From: a virus
Virus record (IMG/VR): IMGVR_UViG_3300025127_007327
Coordinates: 33,460-97,459 of that record
Reading direction: 5' to 3' (one strand)
Length of the DNA: 64,000 nt
Shown in pieces: positions 31,897 to 62,087 of the stretch (position 1 is its first letter; every line of letters starts with the position of its first letter). The position numbers and the translations under genes are program-made. The notes below the pieces were generated by a model. It was not told the origin of the DNA, did no database searches, and saw only the letters and a list, made by a program, of their open reading frames with translations.

Positions 31897-34800
31897 ATGA
31901 GTAAAGTAAATTTAAATATACCGTCTCCACAGGTATTTGGTAAAAAGCTACCAAGAGTTTTTATTGATAAAATAGAAATTCAAGATTTTTCTAAGTCGGA
32001 TGGCGATTTTCGTGCAGGTTATGAATATTATGACCACGCAAAAATAGTTGTATATTTAAATATTAGATTTTCAAAACCAGCACATATTCAATATGCTACG
32101 ACCCGTGATTTTATAACTAATCAACTTGATGGCTTGTATTTACATGCTTACACTTCATTTTTAAATCAGTTTAATGATAAATTAGAAAATAATATTTTTA
32201 ATCTCAAAGATTTTTTAGATTGGCGCGAAGGTAAAAATGAATCGGAAGTTAGAAGTAGAATTAATCTTGCTGAAGAATATGGACAACAATTTTCAGATGA
32301 GTGGTTTTTAGGTACTAGCGAACGTTATCGCAACGAGTCTGCAGTGGGTGTAAGTGGCCACGAAATCAAATTATCAGATTTAGTTTCAGAGGACGAAGTA
32401 AATACATATAATTCATCAATTTCCTTTACTAATTCATTTGATTCTGAAGGTAACGAAATTGTTCAGATTTCTAATATTGTTTTAACATTTACGCATAAAC
32501 CATTTTTTGCTGAAGACGTAGCTGTTGCGCTGGGACATGTACTACCAAAAATAGGCAATATTGATCGATTATTTGGTCTTTTTACGGTTGGACCAAAACT
32601 AGAAACTCTTGATACTCCAACTTTCGACGAAACTGTTTCGCAAACTACAAGTATTAATACTTTTAATTCTTATTTTGGCGATATAACGTATTACCAACTC
32701 TTACAAAATGGTAAAATACCTAATAGGTTTTACAGTTCATATTTTGAACAAGACTCAGATGTTCCGTATTATGGTCCTGTATTTATGGGATTAAATGGTG
32801 ATTTTTACAAAACCGAATCTTTTTCAATTCAATCTTTAAGAACACGATTTCAAGAGCTTATAACTAAATATGAGCCATTAAGAGAAACTGATAGTCGCTT
32901 AAACAGTAATATTTCTTCACTTGAAGCAATAATATACGCCGATAATAATACATCAAATGTTTTAGGTGAACTTTCAAATTACCGATCTGTATACCCTGAT
33001 AAATCGCAAGAATTCAAATCAGGCGAATTTTACAATGAATTTGTAATCTTGTTTTCTGATATTGTTTTATTAATACAAAGTATGCCAAAATTAGTTGAAA
33101 AGGTTTTATACGATTCTTTAGTTATTGACACAAGAGCGCGCCAAGGTTTATATGACCCAGAAGTTTTTCGACGGGCAGGAATTCCAGCAAGTGCTCTAGT
33201 TACTGGGGCTGGTGATGATCGCGACTCTGATGATTACATTTCAAAAAACTGGTTTCAAATTTCAAGAAGAGCCTATATTAGAGATACTGCGCCGGGCGCC
33301 GGCGCTACGTCTGCTGGTGGTGCTTTTGGTGATCTTCTTGATGATTTGTTTCCAAGTGAGGGTCCCGATGACTTTTATTCTGAGCGACGACGCGCACTTG
33401 ACGCTGAACGTCGTGCTGGCGAAGGTACAGCCGACCGACCCGCCTCCGGTGCTGAGTATACAGACTTATTAAATCAATTTGTTGAAGTATATGAAGCCGC
33501 AGGATATAGTTCTGCAGATGCTTTAGAATTAGCAGAATCTGAATTAGAATTTCAACTAAGAGCCCCAACCGAAGATTCATTTGGCGGCACCGAGCGAGGA
33601 CTATTTGACCTTACTCGTGCAGAATCATCGACGATTTATACCGCGTTAACTGATGAAGATTTTGTTGTTAATAATTTTGGATATTTTTTCTTTGATTATG
33701 AAAAAGCTGTAAGGACTAGAGCCAATATTTCTCATTTCTTAAATCTTTCTAAATTACAAAAATATTTTAGGTTTAATGTTCCTTACAGAGATTTTCAAAT
33801 TAAAAAAGTTACGTTAAGTAGAAATGAGCTTCTTTTAGAAGCTGATGATATCATAGCTTCTGAAGCTGCTGAAAAAACTGTTAACTTTAAGATAGAAACG
33901 ACCATGCTCAACGGCCCCGCCGGTACAATTCCTAAAAGTAAATTTGCTAAGTATTCGCTTGATGCATCAAACGCAGCTAATGAAGCCGGCGCCGGTGCTG
34001 ACCCAATATCAAAATTAAGATATGGTAGACCAATTGTAAGTATTAATAATCAGCTTAGGTATAGTTACGTAAAATTTATTAATTTTGATGTTGCCAATTC
34101 AGATATATCACGCAGACTTGAAGGTGTTGGTAGAATACCTGATGAGATTAATTATACTGATACTCAAACAGTGGGAGATGGATACAGATTAGCGTGTTTT
34201 GAATTTTCGGACTTTATGGACGACAATGTGGCTTACAAAAACACAATTTTTGATTTAGATGATGCCCTTGGTTTTAGCATTCTTTCAAATAGGCAAGAAG
34301 CATTAAAAATTGTTAATAATGATAGTCCGGTAACTAATTACAAAGTTTTGATTGAATGTGAAGATTCTACTTTAGAAACGTATAAAAATTTTAGAAATGA
34401 AATTAGAAATGTATATGAACGTTTTAGAGCATATGCAGAATTATCTGACGAAATTTGTTCTTACAATAATATCACTAACTCATTCAATCAATTTTTTATT
34501 GATGGTATTACTGAAGCCTATGGTGATAGTAGACCTTGGATTGAGGCTGCTTATGTATATGTTGCAATGAGAGATTTACTATTTGGGGACCTGCAAGCTC
34601 TAGAACCCTCAAAGTTGGATAATCAAGTAAGCGCACAATTGATAACAATAGCTCCTGAAACTGGAACAATTGAAGGTGTACGCTCTATGCTTAAAGAATT
34701 TTGTACAATTATGAGAAGCATGTATTCAAGTGCTGCATATGCTCCTGCAGATGAAGATAAACCCGATTTAGTTGAAGGTGCTCAATCAGGCTTTGATGGA

Positions 34801-52830: not shown

Positions 52831-53967
52831 ATGAACGACAACGATAACAATGAGTTTGATTTTCTGCCGCCCGCAGAACCACCACCCTCTTTTAATCAGG
52901 AGAAAGATCACTATCACGAAGAAGTAGATGCTGAAGATTTCGGTATGGTCGAGGATTTCGGATTACAGATGGAATACTCTGATGAAGATCTACTCCCAGA
53001 GAACACGGCTCCTTCTTCAATAAACGTTGGCTTCGTTGGTGTTGGTGGCGGCGGTAACAAGATGGCTAACGCATTTCTTGAATTAGGTTTTAATAAAACA
53101 CTGCTTGTCAATACAACAGGCAAGGACATTCCAAAAAATGTCGAAGAGGATCACGTTGTCCTTATCCCCGATTCTGATGGAATTGGTAAAAACGTAGAAT
53201 ATGGAAAAGAGGTTTTAGCACAAAATGGAGCGATTGTCGAAGATGCTCTCCGCATCAAGTTTGGGAAAGTTGATTGGTTATTCGTCCTTGCTGGTGGCGG
53301 TGGCGGTACCGGTAGTAGCGTCACTGCTCTTCATCCTGTTTTTGAGCGCTACCTTCGCTCTGTTCAAGCTGCTGGACAAGTAGTATACATTACTTCATGG
53401 CCAACCGCACAAGAGAACCTAAACCCCACTATCGCTCGTAATGCGTTGGCGCTTGCTAACGATGTGTCAAGACACCCGCACATTATTCTTGACAACGAGC
53501 GTTCTACACGATTACTTCGCGGCCGGATTGGTATGCTTGGCATGTACCCTGTCGCAAACACACAATTTGCTAAGTCTTTCGCACAAATACTAAAGCTCTC
53601 CAGTGAGGATTCACCGATTCAATCTTTTGATAGTAAAGACTTAGAAACCTGTTTAGATCAGACCGGTCGAGCCTTTGTTGGCTCTACCATGATAAAAGAT
53701 CCAAATACAGGAAAGCTTGGATCGGTGATCCTTCACAACTGCATGAATCGTTCTGCATGTCCTCCACCCAAGGGTAAGGCTGCTGCTGGTTCGTTAGTGT
53801 TGGTTGTGTCAGAAGAGATGGTAGCAGACCCGAAGGTTAGCAAGAATATTGAGTCGGCAATCGCTTATGTCGGCGGTCGATGCGAGACACTTTTCTCTGG
53901 TGTTTACGTCAGAAAGAATGTGCCCGGATTGATTGCGATACTAAGTATGAATGGATTAGCGACATAG
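52831..53967 (+). CDS. FtsZ/tubulin-superfamily GTPase
   Basis: GFVGVGGGGNK (T1), VNT, DGIGKN (T3), AGGGGGTGS (T4 signature), LDNE, and SFDSKDL (T7-like loop). Confidence 0.9.
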   Translation: MNDNDNNEFDFLPPAEPPPSFNQEKDHYHEEVDAEDFGMVEDFGLQMEYSDEDLLPENTAPSSINVGFVGVGGGGNKMANAFLELGFNKTLLVNTTGKDIPKNVEEDHVVLIPDSDGIGKNVEYGKEVLAQNGAIVEDALRIKFGKVDWLFVLAGGGGGTGSSVTALHPVFERYLRSVQAAGQVVYITSWPTAQENLNPTIARNALALANDVSRHPHIILDNERSTRLLRGRIGMLGMYPVANTQFAKSFAQILKLSSEDSPIQSFDSKDLETCLDQTGRAFVGSTMIKDPNTGKLGSVILHNCMNRSACPPPKGKAAAGSLVLVVSEEMVADPKVSKNIESAIAYVGGRCETLFSGVYVRKNVPGLIAILSMNGLAT

Positions 53968-53976
53968 GAGATTATA

Positions 53977-54393
53977 ATGGCTAGACAAAAAAACACAAAA
54001 AGAATTGACCCTCGTTACTTTTTGAACGAGACAACATATAGGGACTTAAACGAACAAGAAGCACAAGTCCTTGATATGAGCAACCCCAGAGAATTCCGTA
54101 GCGCATATGTCGCCTTGAGACAAAAGCTTGGAAGGGAACCTGTTTTAAAGAATCCCGGCGAAGTAGAATATTATCAATTGAGATCTCTTGTAAAGACCAC
54201 TAGAACCTCTACGGGAGATTACGATAATAAATTTGGATACGCGCTGGATTATTCGACGGTGCCAAATATGACGCAATCTGCATACATTGATATGATTGAA
54301 CCGGGTGATAGAGCCGCCACAGATCCAGCAGTTTGGCTAGCACAAACTTTATTAAAGAGTAGAGGTATTAACAAAGTAGAAGTTGTTGGATAG
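53977..54393 (+). CDS. Hypothetical protein, possible head protein
   Basis: AGGAG ribosome-binding site; N-terminal ...YFLNE...DLNE repeats. Confidence 0.6.
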   Translation: MARQKNTKRIDPRYFLNETTYRDLNEQEAQVLDMSNPREFRSAYVALRQKLGREPVLKNPGEVEYYQLRSLVKTTRTSTGDYDNKFGYALDYSTVPNMTQSAYIDMIEPGDRAATDPAVWLAQTLLKSRGINKVEVVG

Positions 54394-54397
54394 TAAA

Positions 54398-54697
54398 ATG
54401 ATTAATTTATTAAACAAACTTTGGAATTTTTTAGTATCAAAAACATCACATGCTATTGCAGCAACACCAGTACTTGTAGAAGATACAACAGAAGAAATCG
54501 ATCTGCGCGCCTTATTTGTGCAAGTTTGCGTAAGCAAAGGTATGGGTGATAGACCTCTAAGAGAATCAAATGCAGTAGAATTATTTCTCGAATGGTATGA
54601 TGGGGAGCCTACTCACGATGCTATACTCGCATGTATGCCTGAATTTATGGCGCAAAATAATATAGTCAACGCTAAGTTTCAAAGGTTCTTTGGATGA
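54398..54697 (+). CDS. Hypothetical protein
   Basis: ATG at 54398 follows the upstream stop; amphipathic N-terminus. Confidence 0.55.
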   Translation: MINLLNKLWNFLVSKTSHAIAATPVLVEDTTEEIDLRALFVQVCVSKGMGDRPLRESNAVELFLEWYDGEPTHDAILACMPEFMAQNNIVNAKFQRFFG

Positions 54698-55542
54698 AAA
54701 TTAGTAAATCCAATCTTAAACAAATGATCAACGAAGAAATTGAACTTTTTCGGCATGAGCAAATAATGTTGCAAGAGCAGAGGCGAATTGACTTACTGCA
54801 TAATCAAATGCGACAAGAGGTGTTATCTGAAGATTGGAAAAAAGAATTACCGCACATAGGTCTTGATGTTCTTGGTCTTATTCCCGGCATCGGTGAAGCA
54901 GCAGATTTAACAAATGCAGCATTGTATGCCAAAAAAGGAGAACATTTAATGGCTGCGTTGTCAGTTATATCAATGATTCCTGCAGTTGGAGATGCTATTG
55001 GTAAAGGCGGCAAGATAGGAGTTTATCTTAGTAAGTTTGGGGCTAAGGGTGGAACAAGAGCCGGCACCTATTTGGGCAAGCTACTCTCTAAGCAAATGCC
55101 AAAAATTACTAAAACTCTTAACGCACTTAAATCAAATAAACTGATTGGTCAATATGTTGACGACATGGCTAAAGCTGTTACAAAATATGTTGACGATGTT
55201 GGTGCTGGAGTAGCAGATAAAATTTTGCCCCAAGTCCAGAAGGCAGTCGGCGTAGCGCCAACACAAACAGTTAGTAAAAACAAGTATGTTGCGCTGGCAC
55301 AGCAAGCTCAAGGCAAAACAATAGCACGTCAAAATAGACAGAAAATAGCGCAAGACTTATCTGGTGAAGAAGAATTAGATCAAGTCGCTGAAAGATCCCT
55401 GACTAAATCAGAAAAGAAAGAAAAAGAAAAAGTTGTTAAGGGCATGAAGAAATCTAAGAAAGATTTTAAACGTCGCTATGGTGACGATGCAGAATCAGTG
55501 ATGTACGCAACTGCAACTAAAATAGCAAAAGAAAAAGGGTGA
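54694..55542 (+). CDS. Shared-leader protein with pre-toxin-TG-like domain and basic C-terminal module
   Basis: Leader MKISKSNLKQMINEE; HIGLDVLGLIPGIGEAADLTNAALY...AALSVISMIPAVGD; C-terminal ...RYGDDAESVMYATATKIAK. Confidence 0.65.
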   Translation: MKISKSNLKQMINEEIELFRHEQIMLQEQRRIDLLHNQMRQEVLSEDWKKELPHIGLDVLGLIPGIGEAADLTNAALYAKKGEHLMAALSVISMIPAVGDAIGKGGKIGVYLSKFGAKGGTRAGTYLGKLLSKQMPKITKTLNALKSNKLIGQYVDDMAKAVTKYVDDVGAGVADKILPQVQKAVGVAPTQTVSKNKYVALAQQAQGKTIARQNRQKIAQDLSGEEELDQVAERSLTKSEKKEKEKVVKGMKKSKKDFKRRYGDDAESVMYATATKIAKEKG

Positions 55543-55543
55543 G

Positions 55544-55750
55544 GTGATTGTGTCTGCAAAAGCACAAGCATTTTTAGATACATGGTTAGCAAAACTTACG
55601 TCTAGAAAACTAATGGTGTGGTTGACGGCCACAGGGCTTACCTTAGCTGGGCACGTAACTAGCGAAGACTGGGTAATTATTTCAGCAATCTATATCGGAG
55701 GTCAGACAGTTATTGATGGCATCGCTAGATTGCGAGGTTATAATGACTAA
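55544..55750 (+). CDS. Putative holin
   Basis: 68 aa; SRK followed by two hydrophobic segments; YIGGQTVID motif. Confidence 0.65.
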   Translation: MIVSAKAQAFLDTWLAKLTSRKLMVWLTATGLTLAGHVTSEDWVIISAIYIGGQTVIDGIARLRGYND

Positions 55751-56126
55751 AAAGCTTATACTTGAATTTGCTTTGAAAAACTGGAAAACAATAACCATAG
55801 TGTTTTTATGTCTTGCTTTGGCTTTAAAAAGTCGATATGACTATCATCTTATGCAAAAGGCATATCAAATTCAGTCTGATTCAGTTCAAGCTCAGATTGA
55901 AGGTTTAAAAGAAATTCACAAACAAGAAATACAAAAGAAGCAATTACTCATGGAAAGTCATTTAGAATCTATTGCTGTTATTGAGCAAGAGTACGAAGAT
56001 GCACGTAAAGAACTAGAAGAGCTTAAATTAAATAAAACAAAAGAGTATACTAGAAAATATAGAGATGATAAGCAACAGCTTATTAAGGATATAGAAAACA
56101 AATTCGGAGTCGAATATGTTCCTTAG
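55743..56126 (+). CDS. Putative i-spanin (Rz-like)
   Basis: N-terminal transmembrane segment followed by coiled coil, directly after the holin. ATG 55743 is the more likely start than 55713. Confidence 0.55.
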   Translation: MTKKLILEFALKNWKTITIVFLCLALALKSRYDYHLMQKAYQIQSDSVQAQIEGLKEIHKQEIQKKQLLMESHLESIAVIEQEYEDARKELEELKLNKTKEYTRKYRDDKQQLIKDIENKFGVEYVP

Positions 56127-56535
56127 TTTATTGTTAATGTTAACATCAACTGTTTATGCGACTGAGCCACCAAAGTTTACAATACTTGAATACAAGGCAC
56201 CAGCACCCTTCGAGGGTGTTTTGTTTGACGAGAACGCAATGTCAAAGATCTTATCTGAGTATGATATTGCTTTGTACGCATGTGAAATAAGAACTGATTA
56301 TCAACTTAAAATACTCCGAGAAGAATATGAATACAAATTAGAAAATATTAAAATTGAACACGATTCCTTGACTAGAGAATACGATTTATTTATAATGCAA
56401 AAAGATAAAGAAATACAAGCTTTATCTAGCTCTTTGAAAAAAACTTCTCCGCAATATAAATGGTTGTGGTTTATTGGTGGCGTTGCACTTGGTGGTGCTA
56501 GTTATTATGCAATCGACAAGGAACTATCAAAATGA
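56116..56535 (+). CDS. Putative spanin partner: signal peptide, coiled coil and C-terminal TM
   Basis: Signal-like MFLSLLLMLTSTVYA, PAPFEGVL, coiled coil, then WLWFIGGVALGGASYYA. Confidence 0.5.
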   Translation: MFLSLLLMLTSTVYATEPPKFTILEYKAPAPFEGVLFDENAMSKILSEYDIALYACEIRTDYQLKILREEYEYKLENIKIEHDSLTREYDLFIMQKDKEIQALSSSLKKTSPQYKWLWFIGGVALGGASYYAIDKELSK

Positions 56536-57080
56536 AACACGCTAACTTACCACATCACTTTTATGTATGGGTCAACAATTCTTACTTGGGCCCAAACATG
56601 CCGGAAGGTTATACCTACGCTTTATGGCATGGTATACATTCTAGAGAGGGTCAGATTCCAATGGCACATGTCTTATTAGAGTCAGGCGCTCACTGGTCAG
56701 GCTTGCCTTTGCATGCAATGTCAGACTTTCACGGACCTGAATCGTGGGAAGAAAAACCATATTTAGATTTGTGTCCTTGGGCTGCTATGGGTCCAGATAT
56801 CGAAGCTTATGGCGCAAAGTATCTTGAAGGTCTTGAAGTCGAATTATTTAGATTTGGTTGGAAAGGCAGACACACAGGTATTATGATTGATTGGACAAAT
56901 GGCTTTGACCGCTATCCACAAGAGCATAAACCTTTGAACCTTGTATCGCTTGATGATGGACAGTTCGCCCTGCAGCCAAACAATTATTGCAGATTCAGAG
57001 ACGATCATCTTGTCAATAAAGATAAATTCAAAGAAACTAAAAATTACCGACGCGGCGAAGATGTTTGGTGGGGTGTATGA
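56532..57080 (+). CDS. Conserved hypothetical phage protein
   Basis: LESGAHWSGLPLHA...EHK...GQFALQPNN motifs; function unknown. Confidence 0.65.
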   Translation: MKHANLPHHFYVWVNNSYLGPNMPEGYTYALWHGIHSREGQIPMAHVLLESGAHWSGLPLHAMSDFHGPESWEEKPYLDLCPWAAMGPDIEAYGAKYLEGLEVELFRFGWKGRHTGIMIDWTNGFDRYPQEHKPLNLVSLDDGQFALQPNNYCRFRDDHLVNKDKFKETKNYRRGEDVWWGV

Positions 57081-57466
57081 GCGAAAAAGATTTTGATAAA
57101 ATCGCATCTATCGAAAAAGCGATTAAAGAAAAGTATGGAGAAGAAGCAATTGCCAATCCACATGCTGGCTGGGATGAAGAAAAAGAAAAATTATATCTTA
57201 ACCAGATGAAAGAAATGTACGATAAGATTAAAAGAAATGAAGAGTACGTTGAGAAAATTGATATAAATGGTATAAAGGTTTCAAAAAAACTACTTAATAG
57301 AGAACATTTACGTTCTTGCCCGGTTTGTTCTTCATTCCCAAGTGGTGTTAAAGATGATGTTTGTATAACAAAATTTAAATGTTGTCACAAATGTTATATT
57401 CAATACGTTGATGGAAGAGAAGAAAGATGGGAGCAAGGATGGCGACCACAAATTAAAAAAGGATAA
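57077..57466 (+). CDS. Zn-finger protein upstream of the terminase
   Basis: CPVC...C...CCHKC and C-terminal WEQGWRP; ATGA overlap at 57077. Confidence 0.65.
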   Translation: MSEKDFDKIASIEKAIKEKYGEEAIANPHAGWDEEKEKLYLNQMKEMYDKIKRNEEYVEKIDINGIKVSKKLLNREHLRSCPVCSSFPSGVKDDVCITKFKCCHKCYIQYVDGREERWEQGWRPQIKKG

Positions 57467-57471
57467 TTATA

Positions 57472-58020
57472 ATGGCTACAGTTTACGAAATCGTTCAGGG
57501 CTTGTCACAAGCAGCAGCTAACGCTTATGATGGCGCCCTTGATGAAAATGGGGAACCACTCTTGGTTGGATTGCAAAGAGAGGAGGGAGATCCCATTTTA
57601 GACAAAAGAGTTATGGATGGATTTAATGTCCGCTTTAGTGGAAACATGATGACTCTTTCCTACATGTCAGAAGTGCAATTAAAGGAAGTTTATGCTAGCG
57701 GTTTTGAAACAAGAGTTGAAGAACAGATTGCTGAAATAGCTGCTTTCCTTAAAAAAGAATATCGAAAGATTCGTGGTGAATCAGTTGCTCTTACTAAAGA
57801 AGGAGAGTTGGATGTGCGTGTCGAAAACTCCACTAGAGTGCGCTCATGGGTAACAGCCGTTTGCAATTATAGAGTTGGTGGTCTTAATGAAGATATGGCA
57901 GTAGCTGCTGAAGCCGACACTAAACCTGAAGATAGCTTTAGAAAGTTTATTGATCAAGGTGGCTGGACTGGCGATGGCGGAAAGCGTCCACAAAACGATA
58001 CCAGAAAAAAGGAATCGTAA
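57472..58020 (+). CDS. Hypothetical protein (head module)
   Basis: AAGGA ribosome-binding site; ACTACTTA motif upstream. Confidence 0.65.
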   Translation: MATVYEIVQGLSQAAANAYDGALDENGEPLLVGLQREEGDPILDKRVMDGFNVRFSGNMMTLSYMSEVQLKEVYASGFETRVEEQIAEIAAFLKKEYRKIRGESVALTKEGELDVRVENSTRVRSWVTAVCNYRVGGLNEDMAVAAEADTKPEDSFRKFIDQGGWTGDGGKRPQNDTRKKES

Positions 58021-58021
58021 A

Positions 58022-58483
58022 ATGAAAATCACCGAAGATCAATTAAGACGCATTATAGTTGAAGAATATATTAAAGAAGAAAATTTGGATGAGTATAGCG
58101 AGGAAGCTGAAAAGCTCATTAAGAAAATGGTTGGCGACAAAGAGTACGCACGTCGAAGAGCTTTAGAAAATCCAAAAACCTCTGAGCCCTCTGACACTGC
58201 ACCAATGGAAAAGCCACATTCTGATTCCGATGATGATGTCGTTATGTCTGGTAATATTGAAGATGCAATTTATGATATGGTCAAAGGTGCTGATACAGGC
58301 GAAGTAGCAGAAATCTTTAATGCTGTGTTTTCGCGTTTTGAACCTGAAGCGGCCGAAGAAATTATGACTTCCTTGTACGGTGGCAAAGAAATGGATGCAA
58401 GACAGCAGCAAGGTAGACAAGTTGGGTTCAAGCTTGAAGAACTCAAATTTTTAATTAAAAAAGTTTTAGCTGAGAGTGTATGA
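58022..58483 (+). CDS. Putative internal head/scaffold-associated protein (shared-leader family)
   Basis: ATG 58022 gives MKITEDQLRRIIVEE; a leader-like helix also occurs at the C-terminus. Confidence 0.6.
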   Translation: MKITEDQLRRIIVEEYIKEENLDEYSEEAEKLIKKMVGDKEYARRRALENPKTSEPSDTAPMEKPHSDSDDDVVMSGNIEDAIYDMVKGADTGEVAEIFNAVFSRFEPEAAEEIMTSLYGGKEMDARQQQGRQVGFKLEELKFLIKKVLAESV

Positions 58484-60063
58484 GCTTTGAACTCACCAAA
58501 AAACAAAAAGTTCAAGAAATCTTAAAGTGCGGAGCAGACCCTGCTTACTTCTTAAGAAACTATGCCCGTATATCTCACCCGATGCACGGGCTTATACTTT
58601 TTAATACTTATGACTTTCAGGACGTATTGCTGAATGATTTTAATGATCACAGATTTAATGTAATTTTAAAAGCAAGACAGTTGGGTATTTCAACGATTAC
58701 AGCCGGGTATATTTCTTGGTTAATGCTGTTCCACAAAGACAAGTCTATTCTTGTTATGGCAACAAAATTCGCCACAGCAGGAAACCTTGTAAAGAAAGTC
58801 AAAAGTATTATGAAGAACCTTCCAGAGTGGATTCGTATTGCTACTATCTCGGTTGATAACAGAACATCTTTTGAGTTGTCAAATGGCTCAACAATTAAGG
58901 CAGCATCTACATCTGGGGATGCTGGTCGTTCTGAAGCACTGTCACTGTTGGTGCTTGATGAGGCTGCACATATTGAGGGCTTAGAAGAGTTGTGGACTGG
59001 TCTGTATCCTACACTGTCTACTGGTGGTCGCTGTATTGCACTATCTACTCCTAACGGTGTTGGAAATTGGTTTCATAAAACTTGCGCTGATGCCGAATCG
59101 GGAGCAAACAACTTTAATCTAACAACGTTACCGTGGGACGTGCATCCTGATAGAGATGAAGAATGGTACAAAAAAGAAACTAGAAACATGTCCAAGCGTC
59201 AGATTGCACAAGAGCTTGAGTGTAACTTCAACACATCTGGCGAAACTGTAATTGATCCTGACTGTATGGAATGGCTTTTATCAAATGTACGTGAACCGAA
59301 ATACAGAACAGGATTTGACAGAAATATTTGGATGTGGGAAGAGTACGATCCATCTTGTAACTATCTGATGGTAGCTGATGTAGCCAGAGGCGATGGTGCT
59401 GACTACTCTACATTTCACATTGTAAAACTTGAGACACTAGAAGTTGTGGTAGAATATCAAGGAAAACCAACTCTTGATATGTACGCGAATGTGCTCAATC
59501 AAGTTGGTAGAGAATTTGGAGAGTGCTTATTGGTTGTCGAAAACAACAATGTTGGATATTCAGTATTGGATAAACTTTTAGAGATGGAATATCCTAATTT
59601 GTATCATTCGATAAAGTCAACCCATGAATATATTGATCAGTATATGGCTGAAAGTATGAATTCTGCAGTGCCCGGTTTTACCACTTCTATGAAGACTAGA
59701 CCTCTTATCATAGCGAAATTAGAAGAGTTTATCAGAAATAAACTAATTACGGTATATTCATCTCGCACTATAAGTGAAATGAAGACTTTTATTTGGAGGA
59801 ACGGTAAACCACAAGCAATGAAAGGCTACCATGATGATTTAATTATGGCGTTGGCAATTGCATGTTGGGTTAGGGATACAGCACTTCAGGCTAGTGCCAG
59901 AGACTTAAACTACAAAGAAGCTTTCGCTAAAGCTGTTTATACCACAAAAACTGTTATGAATACACAAATTAAGGGTCAACACGGCTACAAAGAAAAAGAA
60001 ATATTTGATAAAATTAGTGAAGCAAAAAGCTTATACGAACAATACAAATGGATTATAAAGTGA
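58480..60063 (+). CDS. terL: Terminase large subunit (T4 gp17-like)
   Basis: LKARQLGIST (Walker A-like), LVLDEAA (Walker B), STPNG, and nuclease motifs ADVARGDGADYS and HDDLIMA. Confidence 0.96.
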   Translation: MSFELTKKQKVQEILKCGADPAYFLRNYARISHPMHGLILFNTYDFQDVLLNDFNDHRFNVILKARQLGISTITAGYISWLMLFHKDKSILVMATKFATAGNLVKKVKSIMKNLPEWIRIATISVDNRTSFELSNGSTIKAASTSGDAGRSEALSLLVLDEAAHIEGLEELWTGLYPTLSTGGRCIALSTPNGVGNWFHKTCADAESGANNFNLTTLPWDVHPDRDEEWYKKETRNMSKRQIAQELECNFNTSGETVIDPDCMEWLLSNVREPKYRTGFDRNIWMWEEYDPSCNYLMVADVARGDGADYSTFHIVKLETLEVVVEYQGKPTLDMYANVLNQVGREFGECLLVVENNNVGYSVLDKLLEMEYPNLYHSIKSTHEYIDQYMAESMNSAVPGFTTSMKTRPLIIAKLEEFIRNKLITVYSSRTISEMKTFIWRNGKPQAMKGYHDDLIMALAIACWVRDTALQASARDLNYKEAFAKAVYTTKTVMNTQIKGQHGYKEKEIFDKISEAKSLYEQYKWIIK

Positions 60064-60071
60064 GAATATAA

Positions 60072-62087
60072 ATGGCAGATAATAAGAAAAAAGGTAGAAA
60101 CCCAGCGAATCAACAATCTGAGTTGTTTAAAGCGCTTACTAGATTGTTCTCTGGTCCAATAATAAACTATAGATCGCAGTCTGGTACAAAAATTAGAAGA
60201 CAACATTTAGATAAGTATTCTTCACGTTTTCGCACCGCGTCTGGTCAGCAGTTCAAAAAAGCGCTGTCATCGCCACTTGATAATATTGCATATAATGCTA
60301 TGCAGAGCCAGCGCCGCGTTGAACGGTATGTAGACTTTGACCAAATGGAATACATGCCAGAGATTGCATCGGCACTTGATATTTATGCTGATGAGATGTC
60401 AACATATTCTGACCTAAGACCAATGCTTAACATCAAATGTGGCAACGAAGAAATTAAAGCTGTGCTACATAACCTTTATTCTAAGGTTCTTAACTTAGAG
60501 CACAATTTATTTTCTTGGGCACGGACAATGTGTAAATACGGAGATTTTTTCTTGTACTTAGATATTGATGACAACTTTGGTATTCAGTCTGTTATTTCTA
60601 TTCCTATTGGAGAAGTCGAAAGACTTGAAGGGCAAGATTCTACTAACCCTAACTATATTCAGTATCAGTGGAACTCCGCCGGTATGACATTTGAAAACTG
60701 GCAAATCGCGCACTTTAGAGTTCTTGGTAATGATAAGCACGCACCATACGGTACATCTGTTTTAGATCCTGCTCGACGTATTTTTAGGCAGCTTACGCTT
60801 GTTGAAGATGCTATGATGGCTTATCGAGTTATTCGCTCATCTGAGAGAAGATTATTTAAGATTGACGTTGGTGGTATTCCGCCAAATGATATCGAACAAT
60901 ACATGGAAAAGATTGTTACACAGCTAAAAAGACATACCGTGATTGATCAACAAACTGGTCGAGTTGATTTGCGCTATAACCCAATGAGTATTGAAGAAGA
61001 TTACTTTATTCCAGTTCGTCCCGGTTCCGTAACCGATGTTACAAACTTAGCTGGTGGACAAAACACAACTGCTGTTGAGGATGTTAAGTATCTTAGAGAC
61101 AAGCTGTTCTCCGCTCTGAAAATTCCACAGCCATACTTAGCGATGGGCGAAGGTGCGGCCGAAGATAAAACAACACTTGCTCAGAAAGATATTCGTTTTG
61201 CAAGAACTATTCAAAGGCTTCAAAGAATTCTTACTTCTGAATTAGAAAAGATTGGTATTATCCACTTGTATACTCTTGGTTTTCGTGGCGACGATCTTCT
61301 TTCGTTTGCGCTTAGCCTCAATAACCCGTCAAAGATTGCAGAGCTTCAAGAAATTGAATTTTGGAAATCTAAGTTTGATATTGCTGCTTCTGCAACAGAG
61401 GGATACTTTTCTCGACGTTGGGTTGGCGAGCATATCTTTGGTATGTCTAACGAAGAGTTTGTTCGCAATCAAAGAGAAATTTACTATGACCGCAAATATG
61501 ATGCATCACTTCAACAAGTTGCTGAAGCTGCTGCTGCCGGCGGTGCAGCCGCTGGAGGCTTAGGTGGTGACGCCCTTGGTGGAGGACTCGGAGGTGGTGA
61601 CTTAGCTGGTGCTCTGACTGGTGATACTACAACAACTCCTCCGGCCGACGATGCGGCTCAAACACCTGCTGAAATACCCGCCGCTGATGCAGGTGCTGGT
61701 GGCGCTGATGATTCAGCACTTCTTGCAGTACCGCCCGGCTCTCGAAACGATAAAGTTAGAGAATATGAAAAGAGCACTTACATTGCAAAAGATGGTACAA
61801 ATGACAAGAGAGATATGGGCGCCCGCACTCGCTCTACACATGCCTTATATAACAGAGAAAAAGGTGGTAGAGCCAATAGAGCAAAGTTTCCCGGCGCCCG
61901 TGACCTTGCTACATCACCAATTCCAAATATAGCAAATGGTATTTATGAAGAAGAAGAACCTATTTATAAATTGAAAGAGACTAATGAAGAACAAAAACTT
62001 TTTCAAGTAAACGAATCATTAGATCATTTAATTAAAAGTTTAGAAGATAAAAAAGAAATCATAACGGAGCAAAATGATGAAAACTAA
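60072..62087 (+). CDS. Portal protein (T4 gp20-like) with long C-terminal extension
   Basis: PEIASALDIYADE, YGTSVL, EDAMMAYRVIRSSERRLFKIDVG, EEDYFIP and EDVKYLRDKLFSALKIP. Confidence 0.95.
   Translation: MADNKKKGRNPANQQSELFKALTRLFSGPIINYRSQSGTKIRRQHLDKYSSRFRTASGQQFKKALSSPLDNIAYNAMQSQRRVERYVDFDQMEYMPEIASALDIYADEMSTYSDLRPMLNIKCGNEEIKAVLHNLYSKVLNLEHNLFSWARTMCKYGDFFLYLDIDDNFGIQSVISIPIGEVERLEGQDSTNPNYIQYQWNSAGMTFENWQIAHFRVLGNDKHAPYGTSVLDPARRIFRQLTLVEDAMMAYRVIRSSERRLFKIDVGGIPPNDIEQYMEKIVTQLKRHTVIDQQTGRVDLRYNPMSIEEDYFIPVRPGSVTDVTNLAGGQNTTAVEDVKYLRDKLFSALKIPQPYLAMGEGAAEDKTTLAQKDIRFARTIQRLQRILTSELEKIGIIHLYTLGFRGDDLLSFALSLNNPSKIAELQEIEFWKSKFDIAASATEGYFSRRWVGEHIFGMSNEEFVRNQREIYYDRKYDASLQQVAEAAAAGGAAAGGLGGDALGGGLGGGDLAGALTGDTTTTPPADDAAQTPAEIPAADAGAGGADDSALLAVPPGSRNDKVREYEKSTYIAKDGTNDKRDMGARTRSTHALYNREKGGRANRAKFPGARDLATSPIPNIANGIYEEEEPIYKLKETNEEQKLFQVNESLDHLIKSLEDKKEIITEQNDEN

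Follow-up and report, generated by a model that had tools for sequence, protein, structure and literature searches.

A DUF4112-like hairpin module shared by bacterial toxins and a putatively head-packaged protein of an uncultured marine T4-like phage

Introduction

How toxins delivered to the periplasm by Rhs, type VI secretion system (T6SS) or extracellular contractile injection system (eCIS) machinery reach the cytoplasm, and how proteins ejected by phages do so, is a largely unsolved problem. It is raised here by a single gene (54694..55542, + strand) of an uncultured marine T4-like myophage, whose product carries a conserved hairpin and is encoded close to the terminase and portal genes. 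The gene lies in IMG/VR virus record IMGVR_UViG_3300025127_007327, of which we analyzed positions 33,460 to 97,459, a stretch of 64,000 nucleotides hereafter termed the window. The window forms the 3' two-thirds of the 97,459-base record, which is estimated to be 53% complete, and all coordinates given below are those of the window. An earlier note on this DNA had proposed that the product is a leader-tagged, head-packaged protein in which a PT-TG-like pre-toxin module of Rhs/LXG-type polymorphic toxins is reused. What, then, is this hairpin, where else does it occur, and what might it do in a phage? Our answer to the last of these questions, to which we give a probability of roughly 0.45, is that the product would be a head-internal protein loaded by its leader, trimmed by a protease and ejected, with a DUF4112-like hairpin engaging the cytoplasmic membrane on behalf of the part attached to it.

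A conserved module larger than the hairpin

The gene is a stop-free reading frame of 282 codons plus a stop codon, present in one copy in the 97-kb contig, and its product reads as a mosaic in which a leader and a propiece are followed by the core module, a linker and a C-terminal tag. Both the open reading frame (ORF) and its motif were confirmed, with the leader MKISKSNLKQMINEEIE at residues 1-17, VLSE at residues 43-46, the hairpin quoted by the earlier note as HIGLD...GKGGK at residues 54-107 (54853-55014), and a helical region and basic tail SLTKSEKK...KIAKEKG (residues 235-282) all present as described. The conserved unit exceeds the hairpin that had been noticed, extending from about W48 to about residue 170. 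This core module (residues 47-170; 54832..55203, + strand) is composed of a W48/H54 pre-motif, the hairpin proper (54853..55014, + strand; LDxxGLIPGxGExAD...NA..Y..G / ..AALSxISMIPxxGDxIGKGGK), in which an IPxxG[DE] motif occurs twice, and three amphipathic helices.

The family is large. A word-indexed search returned 495 homologues at E<=1e-3, all of them metagenomic, and a core profile built from 17 homologues and searched against 1.84 billion representatives returned 5,188 clusters (50% identity) at E<=1e-3, of which 1,244 reach E<=1e-10. Matches span positions ~45-175 of the profile, equivalent to residues ~47-170 of the window protein. Twenty-four core columns are invariant across 17 close homologues. 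Among 132 representatives, whose identity to the window protein is 23-46%, G61, D71, S90, G99 and D100 remain invariant, and L57, D58, P64, G67, E68, N74, S93, P96, G103, K104, G105 and K107 are conserved in at least 90%; a per-column conservation table covers 86 family members. Motif conservation, together with the numbers of homologues and clusters, places the motif far beyond chance. The word-indexed search gave no long hairpin proteins, a false negative, as profile and genome scans found such proteins. Scans of the window protein and its homologues found no entry for the core family in Pfam, NCBIfam or PHROGs.

Some copies in Planctomycetes, Bacteroidota and other organisms match the hairpin alone (~58 aa), and the hairpin is therefore separable from its helical extension. 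In a domain tree, the window protein falls with good support inside a clade whose 31 rows are phage or phage-like, and the phage and bacterial labels require only four changes; because the alignment has just 131 columns, the tree identifies neither a donor nor a direction of transfer. One metagenomic protein (P0122, 732 aa) holds two whole core modules in tandem, at about residues 96-220 and 345-496, with a Lys/Glu-rich linker between them. AlphaFold2 (AF2) models are all-helical, with residues 67-170 confidently modeled and the first hairpin arm at low confidence; a domain model of the short family member P0258 reached a predicted local distance difference test (pLDDT) score of 80 and a predicted template modeling (pTM) score of 0.68. 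A profile sequence search of the PDB returned designed helical bundles only (E>=0.04).

Relation to catalogued families

The nearest catalogued family of the core is DUF4112 (PF13430), of which the core appears, from sequence, to be an uncatalogued relative. Matches to DUF4112, all below the Pfam threshold, were obtained for 16 of the 17 close and 25 of the 132 diverse family members, the best at E 2.7e-5; a reference set of 16 genuine DUF4112 members from Pseudomonadota scored 63-128 bits. When the hairpin was aligned with DUF4112 by hhalign, the result was 89.5% (E 2e-6, 49 columns), as opposed to 2% for a reversed control. The alignment pairs LDxxGLIPGxGE with GLDxxxGLxPxxGD and SxISMIPxxGD with xGxVPLxGD, bringing both IPxxGD motifs into register, so that DUF4112 and the module have in common a double G-L-I-P-x-x-G-D motif of the same spacing. 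The two nevertheless differ. About half of the 105 positions of the DUF4112 model align, and the module adds a polar first arm, the GKGGK element and three amphipathic helices; furthermore, the module is a domain within delivered proteins, whereas DUF4112 is a stand-alone membrane protein, described as having two transmembrane helices (PMC10033685). DUF4112-like segments have been annotated automatically in FIX/Rhs effectors of the T6SS, apparently without comment (PMC13694042), and these may be the same hairpin as the one described here. For DUF4112 itself, an orphan membrane family, the link provides an initial clue to function.

The label PT-TG, by contrast with the pre-toxin character that it was meant to convey, does not apply. 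No hit to PF14449 was obtained at E<=10 in the window protein, in 17 close homologues or in the six-frame translation of the genome, and PF14449 was absent from the families matched at E<=0.01 in the 132 diverse homologues. As a control, 15 genuine PT-TG segments from Bacillota genomes scored 27-76 bits, the gathering score of PF14449 being 23.5 bits. Alignment of the core family with these 15 segments by hhalign gave 2.6% (E 0.017), which speaks against membership; further runs against PT-TG gave 2.9-6.7%, and a reversed PT-TG control gave 2.5-3.9%. The profile similarity of the core to PT-TG is noise. PT-TG is defined by a TG / Gly-Asp-Arg loop of ~15 residues (PMC13483458). Genuine members read ..TG.D..TGE.LS..ER.., where the window protein instead reads NAALYAKKGEHLMAALS and lacks the loop. 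A lead to PT-TG from the ESM Atlas (rank 5, score 0.90, 134 shared features) was not upheld by hmmscan, by six-frame search or by the controlled hhalign runs, and SPbeta YokI, considered as a source of PT-TG, carries LXG and Tox-SHH and no PT-TG. As a warning to annotators, the motif should not carry the PT-TG label.

The same module in bacterial toxins

Copies of the module (profile E<1e-30) precede toxin tips and PT-HINT in Rhs/YD proteins, VgrG-like proteins, LysM proteins, giant Planctomycete proteins and short orphan toxins. Behind the core, the 132 representatives carry the Pfam tips RNAse_A_bac (1e-27), TNT (3e-27), WHH (5e-18), Colicin-DNase (1e-15), HNH, VRR_NUC and DUF4258, and two proteins of ~1,500 aa have the architectures LysM-core-HNH and LysM-core-nucleotidyltransferase. 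A scan of prokaryotes, taking one genome per species and one back-translated motif as the query, located 26 loci in Planctomycetota, Treponema, Clostridia, Alphaproteobacteria, Bacteroidota and others, including one Pirellulaceae genome with three copies of the module. PT-HINT lies behind the core in 7 of 22 bacterial proteins, and Toxin-deaminase, EndoU, barnase-type Ribonuclease, GIY-YIG, NTP_transf_2, RHS, DUF6443 and Phage_GPD each occur in one of the 22. Every identified tip is cytoplasm-acting (deaminase, EndoU, barnase-type RNase, RNase A-like, WHH/HNH, colicin DNase, GIY-YIG, VRR-NUC, TNT, NTP transferase).

In Rhs-type proteins of Treponema and Phycisphaerales, the LD motif of the module is found 11-20 residues past a C-terminal DPxGL-type motif, and DPxGL motifs are necessary for toxin-releasing autoproteolysis (PMC11606950); sited just past the cleavage motif, the module heads the released Rhs fragment. 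The Lacrimispora xylanisolvens locus (L023:3044-7292) consists of a PAAR-like DUF4280 gene, a gene for a 916-aa protein joining a VgrG-like region, the module and a BURPS668_1122 deaminase, and then a 108-aa ORF. We read it as the locus of a putative spike-borne deaminase toxin in a Clostridium-group bacterium, the N-terminal region being called VgrG-like from a weak match to Phage_GPD (E 5.6e-4). In Tsuneonella sediminis (L019:5965-7225), a 319-aa protein consists of an N-terminus MASSPPDDGW...GWTWSDVGH, the core and a 186-aa tail, with a 103-aa ORF overlapping its end. Its flanking genes are ones we take, by eye from their translations, to be bamD-like and lepA-like, and no secretion genes lie nearby in the locus viewed. 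An N-terminus of this orphan type also heads HNH, TNT and VRR-NUC tails in metagenomic proteins (the P0254, P0229, P0238 and P0255 set), one further tail in that set being presumably RelA/SpoT-like, as read by eye.

What follows the core is highly changeable: nothing at all, the C-terminal tag, a long linker and the tag, other tails, or many different enzymes. The C-termini are therefore swapped across homologues, and the invariant C-termini that the earlier note would have counted against its proposal are not seen. Its proposal that a pre-toxin module recurs in a phage protein stands insofar as the same module precedes toxin tips, and falls as to the name PT-TG; of the Rhs/LXG context that it invoked, Rhs copies were found and an LXG link was not, the partners among the module homologues found being Rhs, VgrG-like, LysM and PT-HINT, with no LXG/WXG partner. 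The bacterial homologues of the module also resemble PT-TG in coming after a trafficking part and ahead of a toxin tip, while the window protein lacks a tip: library scans found no toxin family in the protein, in agreement with the earlier statement that neither a toxin tip nor an immunity gene could be identified.

Leader, processing sites and C-terminal tag

In the phage protein, the module is enclosed by elements of a different kind. The portable N-terminal leader MKISKSNLKQMINEEIE (residues 1-17; 54694..54744, + strand) contains I12-N-E14 and follows the consensus MKITKxQLKQIIxEE, with which seven ORFs of the contig begin, namely the core gene and six others; in metagenomes, the leader occurs on dozens of unrelated protein bodies. 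It is followed by a helical propiece (residues 18-46; 54745..54831, + strand), predicted to form a helix, which has L26-Q-E28 inside it and ends in V-L-S-E46. A variable helical or low-complexity linker (residues 171-230; 55204..55383, + strand), absent from some homologues and expanded in others by acidic or Pro/Ala-rich inserts of >100 aa, leads to V231-A-E233 (55384..55392, + strand), directly before a basic C-terminal tag ending in KKEKEKVVKGMKKSKKDFKRRYGDDAESVMYATATKIAKEKG (residues 235-282; 55396..55539, + strand), whose residues 238-282 include 16 K/R and 8 D/E.

The T4 prohead protease cuts at sites of the [LIVM]xE type, and E14, E28, E46 and E233 are candidates for such sites in the window protein. 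An [LIVM]xE motif stands at most 18 aa before the hairpin in 41 of 46 homologues that bear the leader, where shuffled sequences would lead one to expect 28, and in 1 of 11 bacterial copies, making VLSE46 a candidate prohead-protease site directly before the module. After the putative cut at E46, the new N-terminus DWKKELPHIGLD... would resemble the GW.W.D.GH..LD start of Rhs-released fragments and orphan toxins. The second candidate site, V231-A-E233, has counterparts in unrelated tag-bearing proteins (VAE, VME, LQE, LSE, IEE or LDE at that position), an [LIVM]xE motif always being found upstream of the tag.

The C-terminal tag matches PHROG 12788 (E 8e-8), for which no function is annotated, and occurs in five Synechococcus phages and at L049:3611-4420; in Synechococcus phage S-B05 it lies inside a 269-aa protein. 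It has no match in Pfam, NCBIfam or the PDB; its best Atlas score, 0.75, was to DUF5824 and confers no identity. A suspected resemblance to ChaB was unsupported by Pfam. Co-occurrence was counted among the 120 matches listed of 495: within these, 78 have the core, 53 of which also have the leader, and 34 have the tag without the core, 31 of which have the leader. Since nearly all the coreless tag proteins bear the leader, the two travel jointly on unrelated bodies, and the tag may be a second head-cargo tag or a DNA-binding tag.

Phage context

The gene stands in a fixed relation to the head genes. The terminase large subunit (TerL) and portal genes occupy 58480..62087 (+ strand), the portal coming after TerL, and in ~30 related virus contigs the core gene is found 0.1-7 kb upstream of this pair. 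Overall, 73 IMG/VR loci, on contigs of up to 395 kb, encode relatives of the module; the core gene is on the same strand as terminase and portal in ~30 contigs, and downstream of the portal in three loci. Synteny with the terminase is kept down to ~58-60% TerL identity, and several core genes abut TerL directly. Immediate neighbors of the core gene, encoding a 104-aa protein and a 68-aa transmembrane (TM) protein, are conserved along with the head module. Peptidase_S77, the type of the T4 prohead protease gp21, is encoded in all four of the longer related virus records that were searched, with E values from 1e-15 to 1e-32. The TerL of the window shares 48% identity with its counterpart in Flavobacterium phage immuto, 44% with that in Microcystis phage Mel-JY01 and ~34% with those of T4-like cyanophages.

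The [LIVM]xE sites, the S77 genes of all four relatives and the fixed place upstream of terminase and portal make it likely that the core protein is packaged in the head. The head-packaged protein of the earlier note is accordingly plausible, by way of these features and of the leader, as a reading of gene content and order.

A tentative reading and its alternatives

What the sequences show directly is homology, domain architecture, gene order and the presence of protease genes in relatives; packaging, cleavage, ejection and membrane action we infer, in the following manner. The N-terminal leader would bring the protein into the prohead, where a T4-type prohead protease would cleave after the Glu of [LIVM]xE sites; a cut at VLSE46 would place the conserved module at the mature N-terminus, and one at VAE233 may release the basic C-terminal tag. 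The mature protein would then be ejected together with the DNA. Residues 47-170 would form a DUF4112-like helical hairpin packed on amphipathic helices, the likeliest job of which would be to engage or insert in the target cytoplasmic membrane, helping the attached part into the cytoplasm. In bacterial toxins, the same module forms the N-terminus of a fragment released by Rhs or carried by a VgrG-type spike, before enzymes that act in the cytoplasm. If the relation to DUF4112 is taken at face value, phages and toxins probably share a membrane-entry device. As the attached part in the window protein is a helical linker and a Lys-rich tag with no toxin, the protein is likelier to assist ejection or entry, or to be an internal protein associated with DNA, than to kill.

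Several observations weigh against this reading. The window protein itself matches DUF4112 at 15.3 bits (E 0.023, residues 55-81), short of the gathering score of 23.3; the hhalign match covers 49 columns, and the resemblance could also be a convergence of motifs. Kyte-Doolittle hydropathy averaged over 19 residues (KD19) is TM-like in the second hairpin arm only (1.74), and a KD19 of 1.6 is reached by 58% of family members. The first arm holds the invariant residues D58, E68, D71 and N74, and this polar arm, with GKGGK, has the look of a site for binding something specific more than that of a general membrane anchor. Fold searches of the PDB and BFVD with the full model (Foldseek), and of VIA-wide with the domain model, returned only generic helical bundles (E>=0.06, Z<=5.5). 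That all identified tips act in the cytoplasm is a weak argument, because nucleases and deaminases dominate polymorphic toxins anyway. With regard to packaging, no S77 protease was matched on the phage's own contig, 53% complete and ending 8.5 kb past the gene, and the residues that follow the candidate cut sites are E, Q, D and R. T4 cleavage sites are usually followed by small residues. Three cultured relatives searched by profile (immuto, Mel-JY01 and S-B05) lack the module, and when 50,697 phage records were searched by tblastn, the C-terminal tag was the sole part of the protein to turn up.

A bolder version of the same idea would have the module descend from a membrane protein of DUF4112 type and work by itself as a portable entry hairpin which, when it stands first in any delivered chain, inserts in the cytoplasmic membrane of the target and carries the cargo behind it across; phage heads, Rhs cages, VgrG spikes and orphan toxins would all use it. 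We consider this possible, if on the doubtful side. Were it true, marine T4-like phages would run a large exchangeable capsid-cargo system with two N-terminal leaders and a C-terminal tag.

Somewhat less probable is that the module never contacts a membrane, and instead docks cargo to a conserved part of a tail-like injection machine (the interior of capsid or portal, the plug of the Rhs cage, the VgrG/PAAR spike, the lumen of the tail tube) or leads the unfolded chain through it. Its carriers are indeed mostly related to phage tails or encapsulating (Rhs cage, VgrG-like protein with a PAAR-like neighbor, phage head), the near-invariant polar residues D58, E68, D71, D100, N74, K104 and K107 suggest a specific protein contact, and the first arm, which is the most conserved, is modeled at low confidence, like an exposed loop. 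However, the Tsuneonella orphan toxin has the module at residue ~25 and is encoded between housekeeping genes with no machine nearby, the carriers are too unlike one another to offer a single docking surface, and the relation to DUF4112 points to membranes.

Unlikely, in our estimation, is an internal component of the head, or one resembling a scaffold, that plays no part in the host, a helical filler or DNA condenser placed by leader and tag, in which the hairpin would serve as an assembly contact. This would fit the co-occurrence of leader and basic tag on 31 unrelated proteins, the position of the gene within the head and packaging module and the lack of an enzymatic tip, but it leaves unexplained why the same module heads released toxin fragments in bacteria that have no capsid, and it does not account for the much stronger conservation of the hairpin relative to the remainder of the protein. 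We give still less credence to a late lysis or membrane-remodeling protein, such as a partner of holin or antiholin type, acting unpackaged inside the infected cell: although in close relatives the gene is followed by those for the 68-aa TM protein and two coiled-coil membrane proteins, and a weak PHROG holin match exists (E 0.31), distant phages (L064-L066, L073, L084, L097) place it directly before TerL or after the portal without those neighbors, the protein has no signal peptide and no clear TM topology, and its leader is common to many non-membrane proteins. A true but divergent PT-TG (PF14449) member is hardly credible, the Atlas cluster at rank 5 being a lead only and the hydrophobic-x-P-x-x-G...D motif before toxin tips being common to both modules, when set against ~150 family members and a six-frame genome without hmmscan hits, an hhalign value of 2.6% that equals the reversed control, and the missing TG / Gly-Asp-Arg loop.

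The reading that we favor, a packaged and ejected protein whose hairpin engages the cytoplasmic membrane, has consequences beyond this phage. With ~5,000 clusters, no place in Pfam or NCBIfam, and a position at the N-terminus of the delivered fragment that would be the same in phages and in toxin systems, the module is a testable candidate for the step of entry into the cytoplasm, and its profile provides a search handle for new toxin tips and for phage-delivered cargo.

Neighboring genes and flanking sequence

A second portable leader, MARQKNTKRIDPRYFLNET, heads the 138-aa neighboring gene (53977..54393, + strand); other phages fuse this leader to the core. Its consensus, MARRKNxKRIDPRYFL, is joined directly to the core in P0099, P0101, P0148, P0163, L084 and L102. 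A DNA contig from run X2 joins 53979 to 55667, omitting 1,687 bases and three genes, the core gene included; the joint is weak, with 36 letters on its shorter side. Several other contigs diverge just past the starts of leader-coding sequence, with loose ends at 54041-54060, 54398 and 55558-55640. These breaks hint, weakly, at replacement of cassettes at conserved leaders.

Downstream of the core gene, a block of genes (tm68-cc137-cc139-orf133-orf182b; 55544-58020) accompanies TerL and portal across ~25 related contigs, and, instead of a lysis cassette, may be a set of accessory genes for the head or for packaging. Within this interval, the ORF at 56532-57080 matches PHROG 3704, annotated as 'ferredoxin' (3e-16). 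Upstream, 52831-53967 encodes a Tubulin/FtsZ-like GTPase (Pfam Tubulin, E 1.2e-7, just under the cut-off), and such a gene is kept upstream of the core gene in L050, L051, L055, L056, L078 and L080.

DNA nearly identical to the window occurs in seawater metagenomes of 16 studies. Pieces of 151 bases within the gene were found in two metatranscriptome runs, where carry-over of DNA is possible. The T4 late promoter TATAAATA occurs at 11 sites, as against 8.7 expected, and none of them precedes the core gene.

Comparison with known systems

Besides DUF4112, four known systems invite comparison with the window protein and its module. Like the module, PT-TG lies just upstream of toxin tips and has a short hydrophobic-P-x-x-G...D element, and its conserved segment is likewise modeled at low confidence (PMC13483458). 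Unlike PT-TG, the module has neither the TG / G-D-R loop nor any profile similarity above the reversed control.

The internal proteins of T4 (IPI-III, Alt) have a capsid targeting sequence (CTS) that is removed by the prohead protease gp21. The window protein shares with them a short N-terminal tag common to several otherwise unrelated proteins, candidate sites of the [LI]xE type, an S77 protease in its relatives and a gene near the head genes. Its leader, on the other hand, is longer than the T4 CTS and unrelated to it in sequence, and is accompanied by a second leader type and a C-terminal tag; a module of toxin type is not known from the internal proteins of T4.

MuF-fused toxins and polyvalent proteins, on which Jamet et al. 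and Iyer et al. are each said to have reported in 2017, are phage proteins related to the idea of particle-delivered effectors. The resemblance lies in the combination of a delivery part with exchangeable cargo. They differ in that a small hairpin module forms the shared part here and that the window protein has no enzyme for its cargo, and Pfam scans of the window protein and 132 homologues found no MuF or LPD domain.

Finally, the cytoplasm-entry domains of CdiA-CT and the prePAAR transmembrane helices of T6SS Rhs effectors are membrane-entry parts of contact-dependent toxins, and they resemble the module in its proposed job, by which a delivered toxin would cross or engage the inner membrane of its target. 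The two differ in place: prePAAR helices come before the Rhs cage, on its N-terminal side, and the module stands behind the C-terminal cleavage site of the cage.

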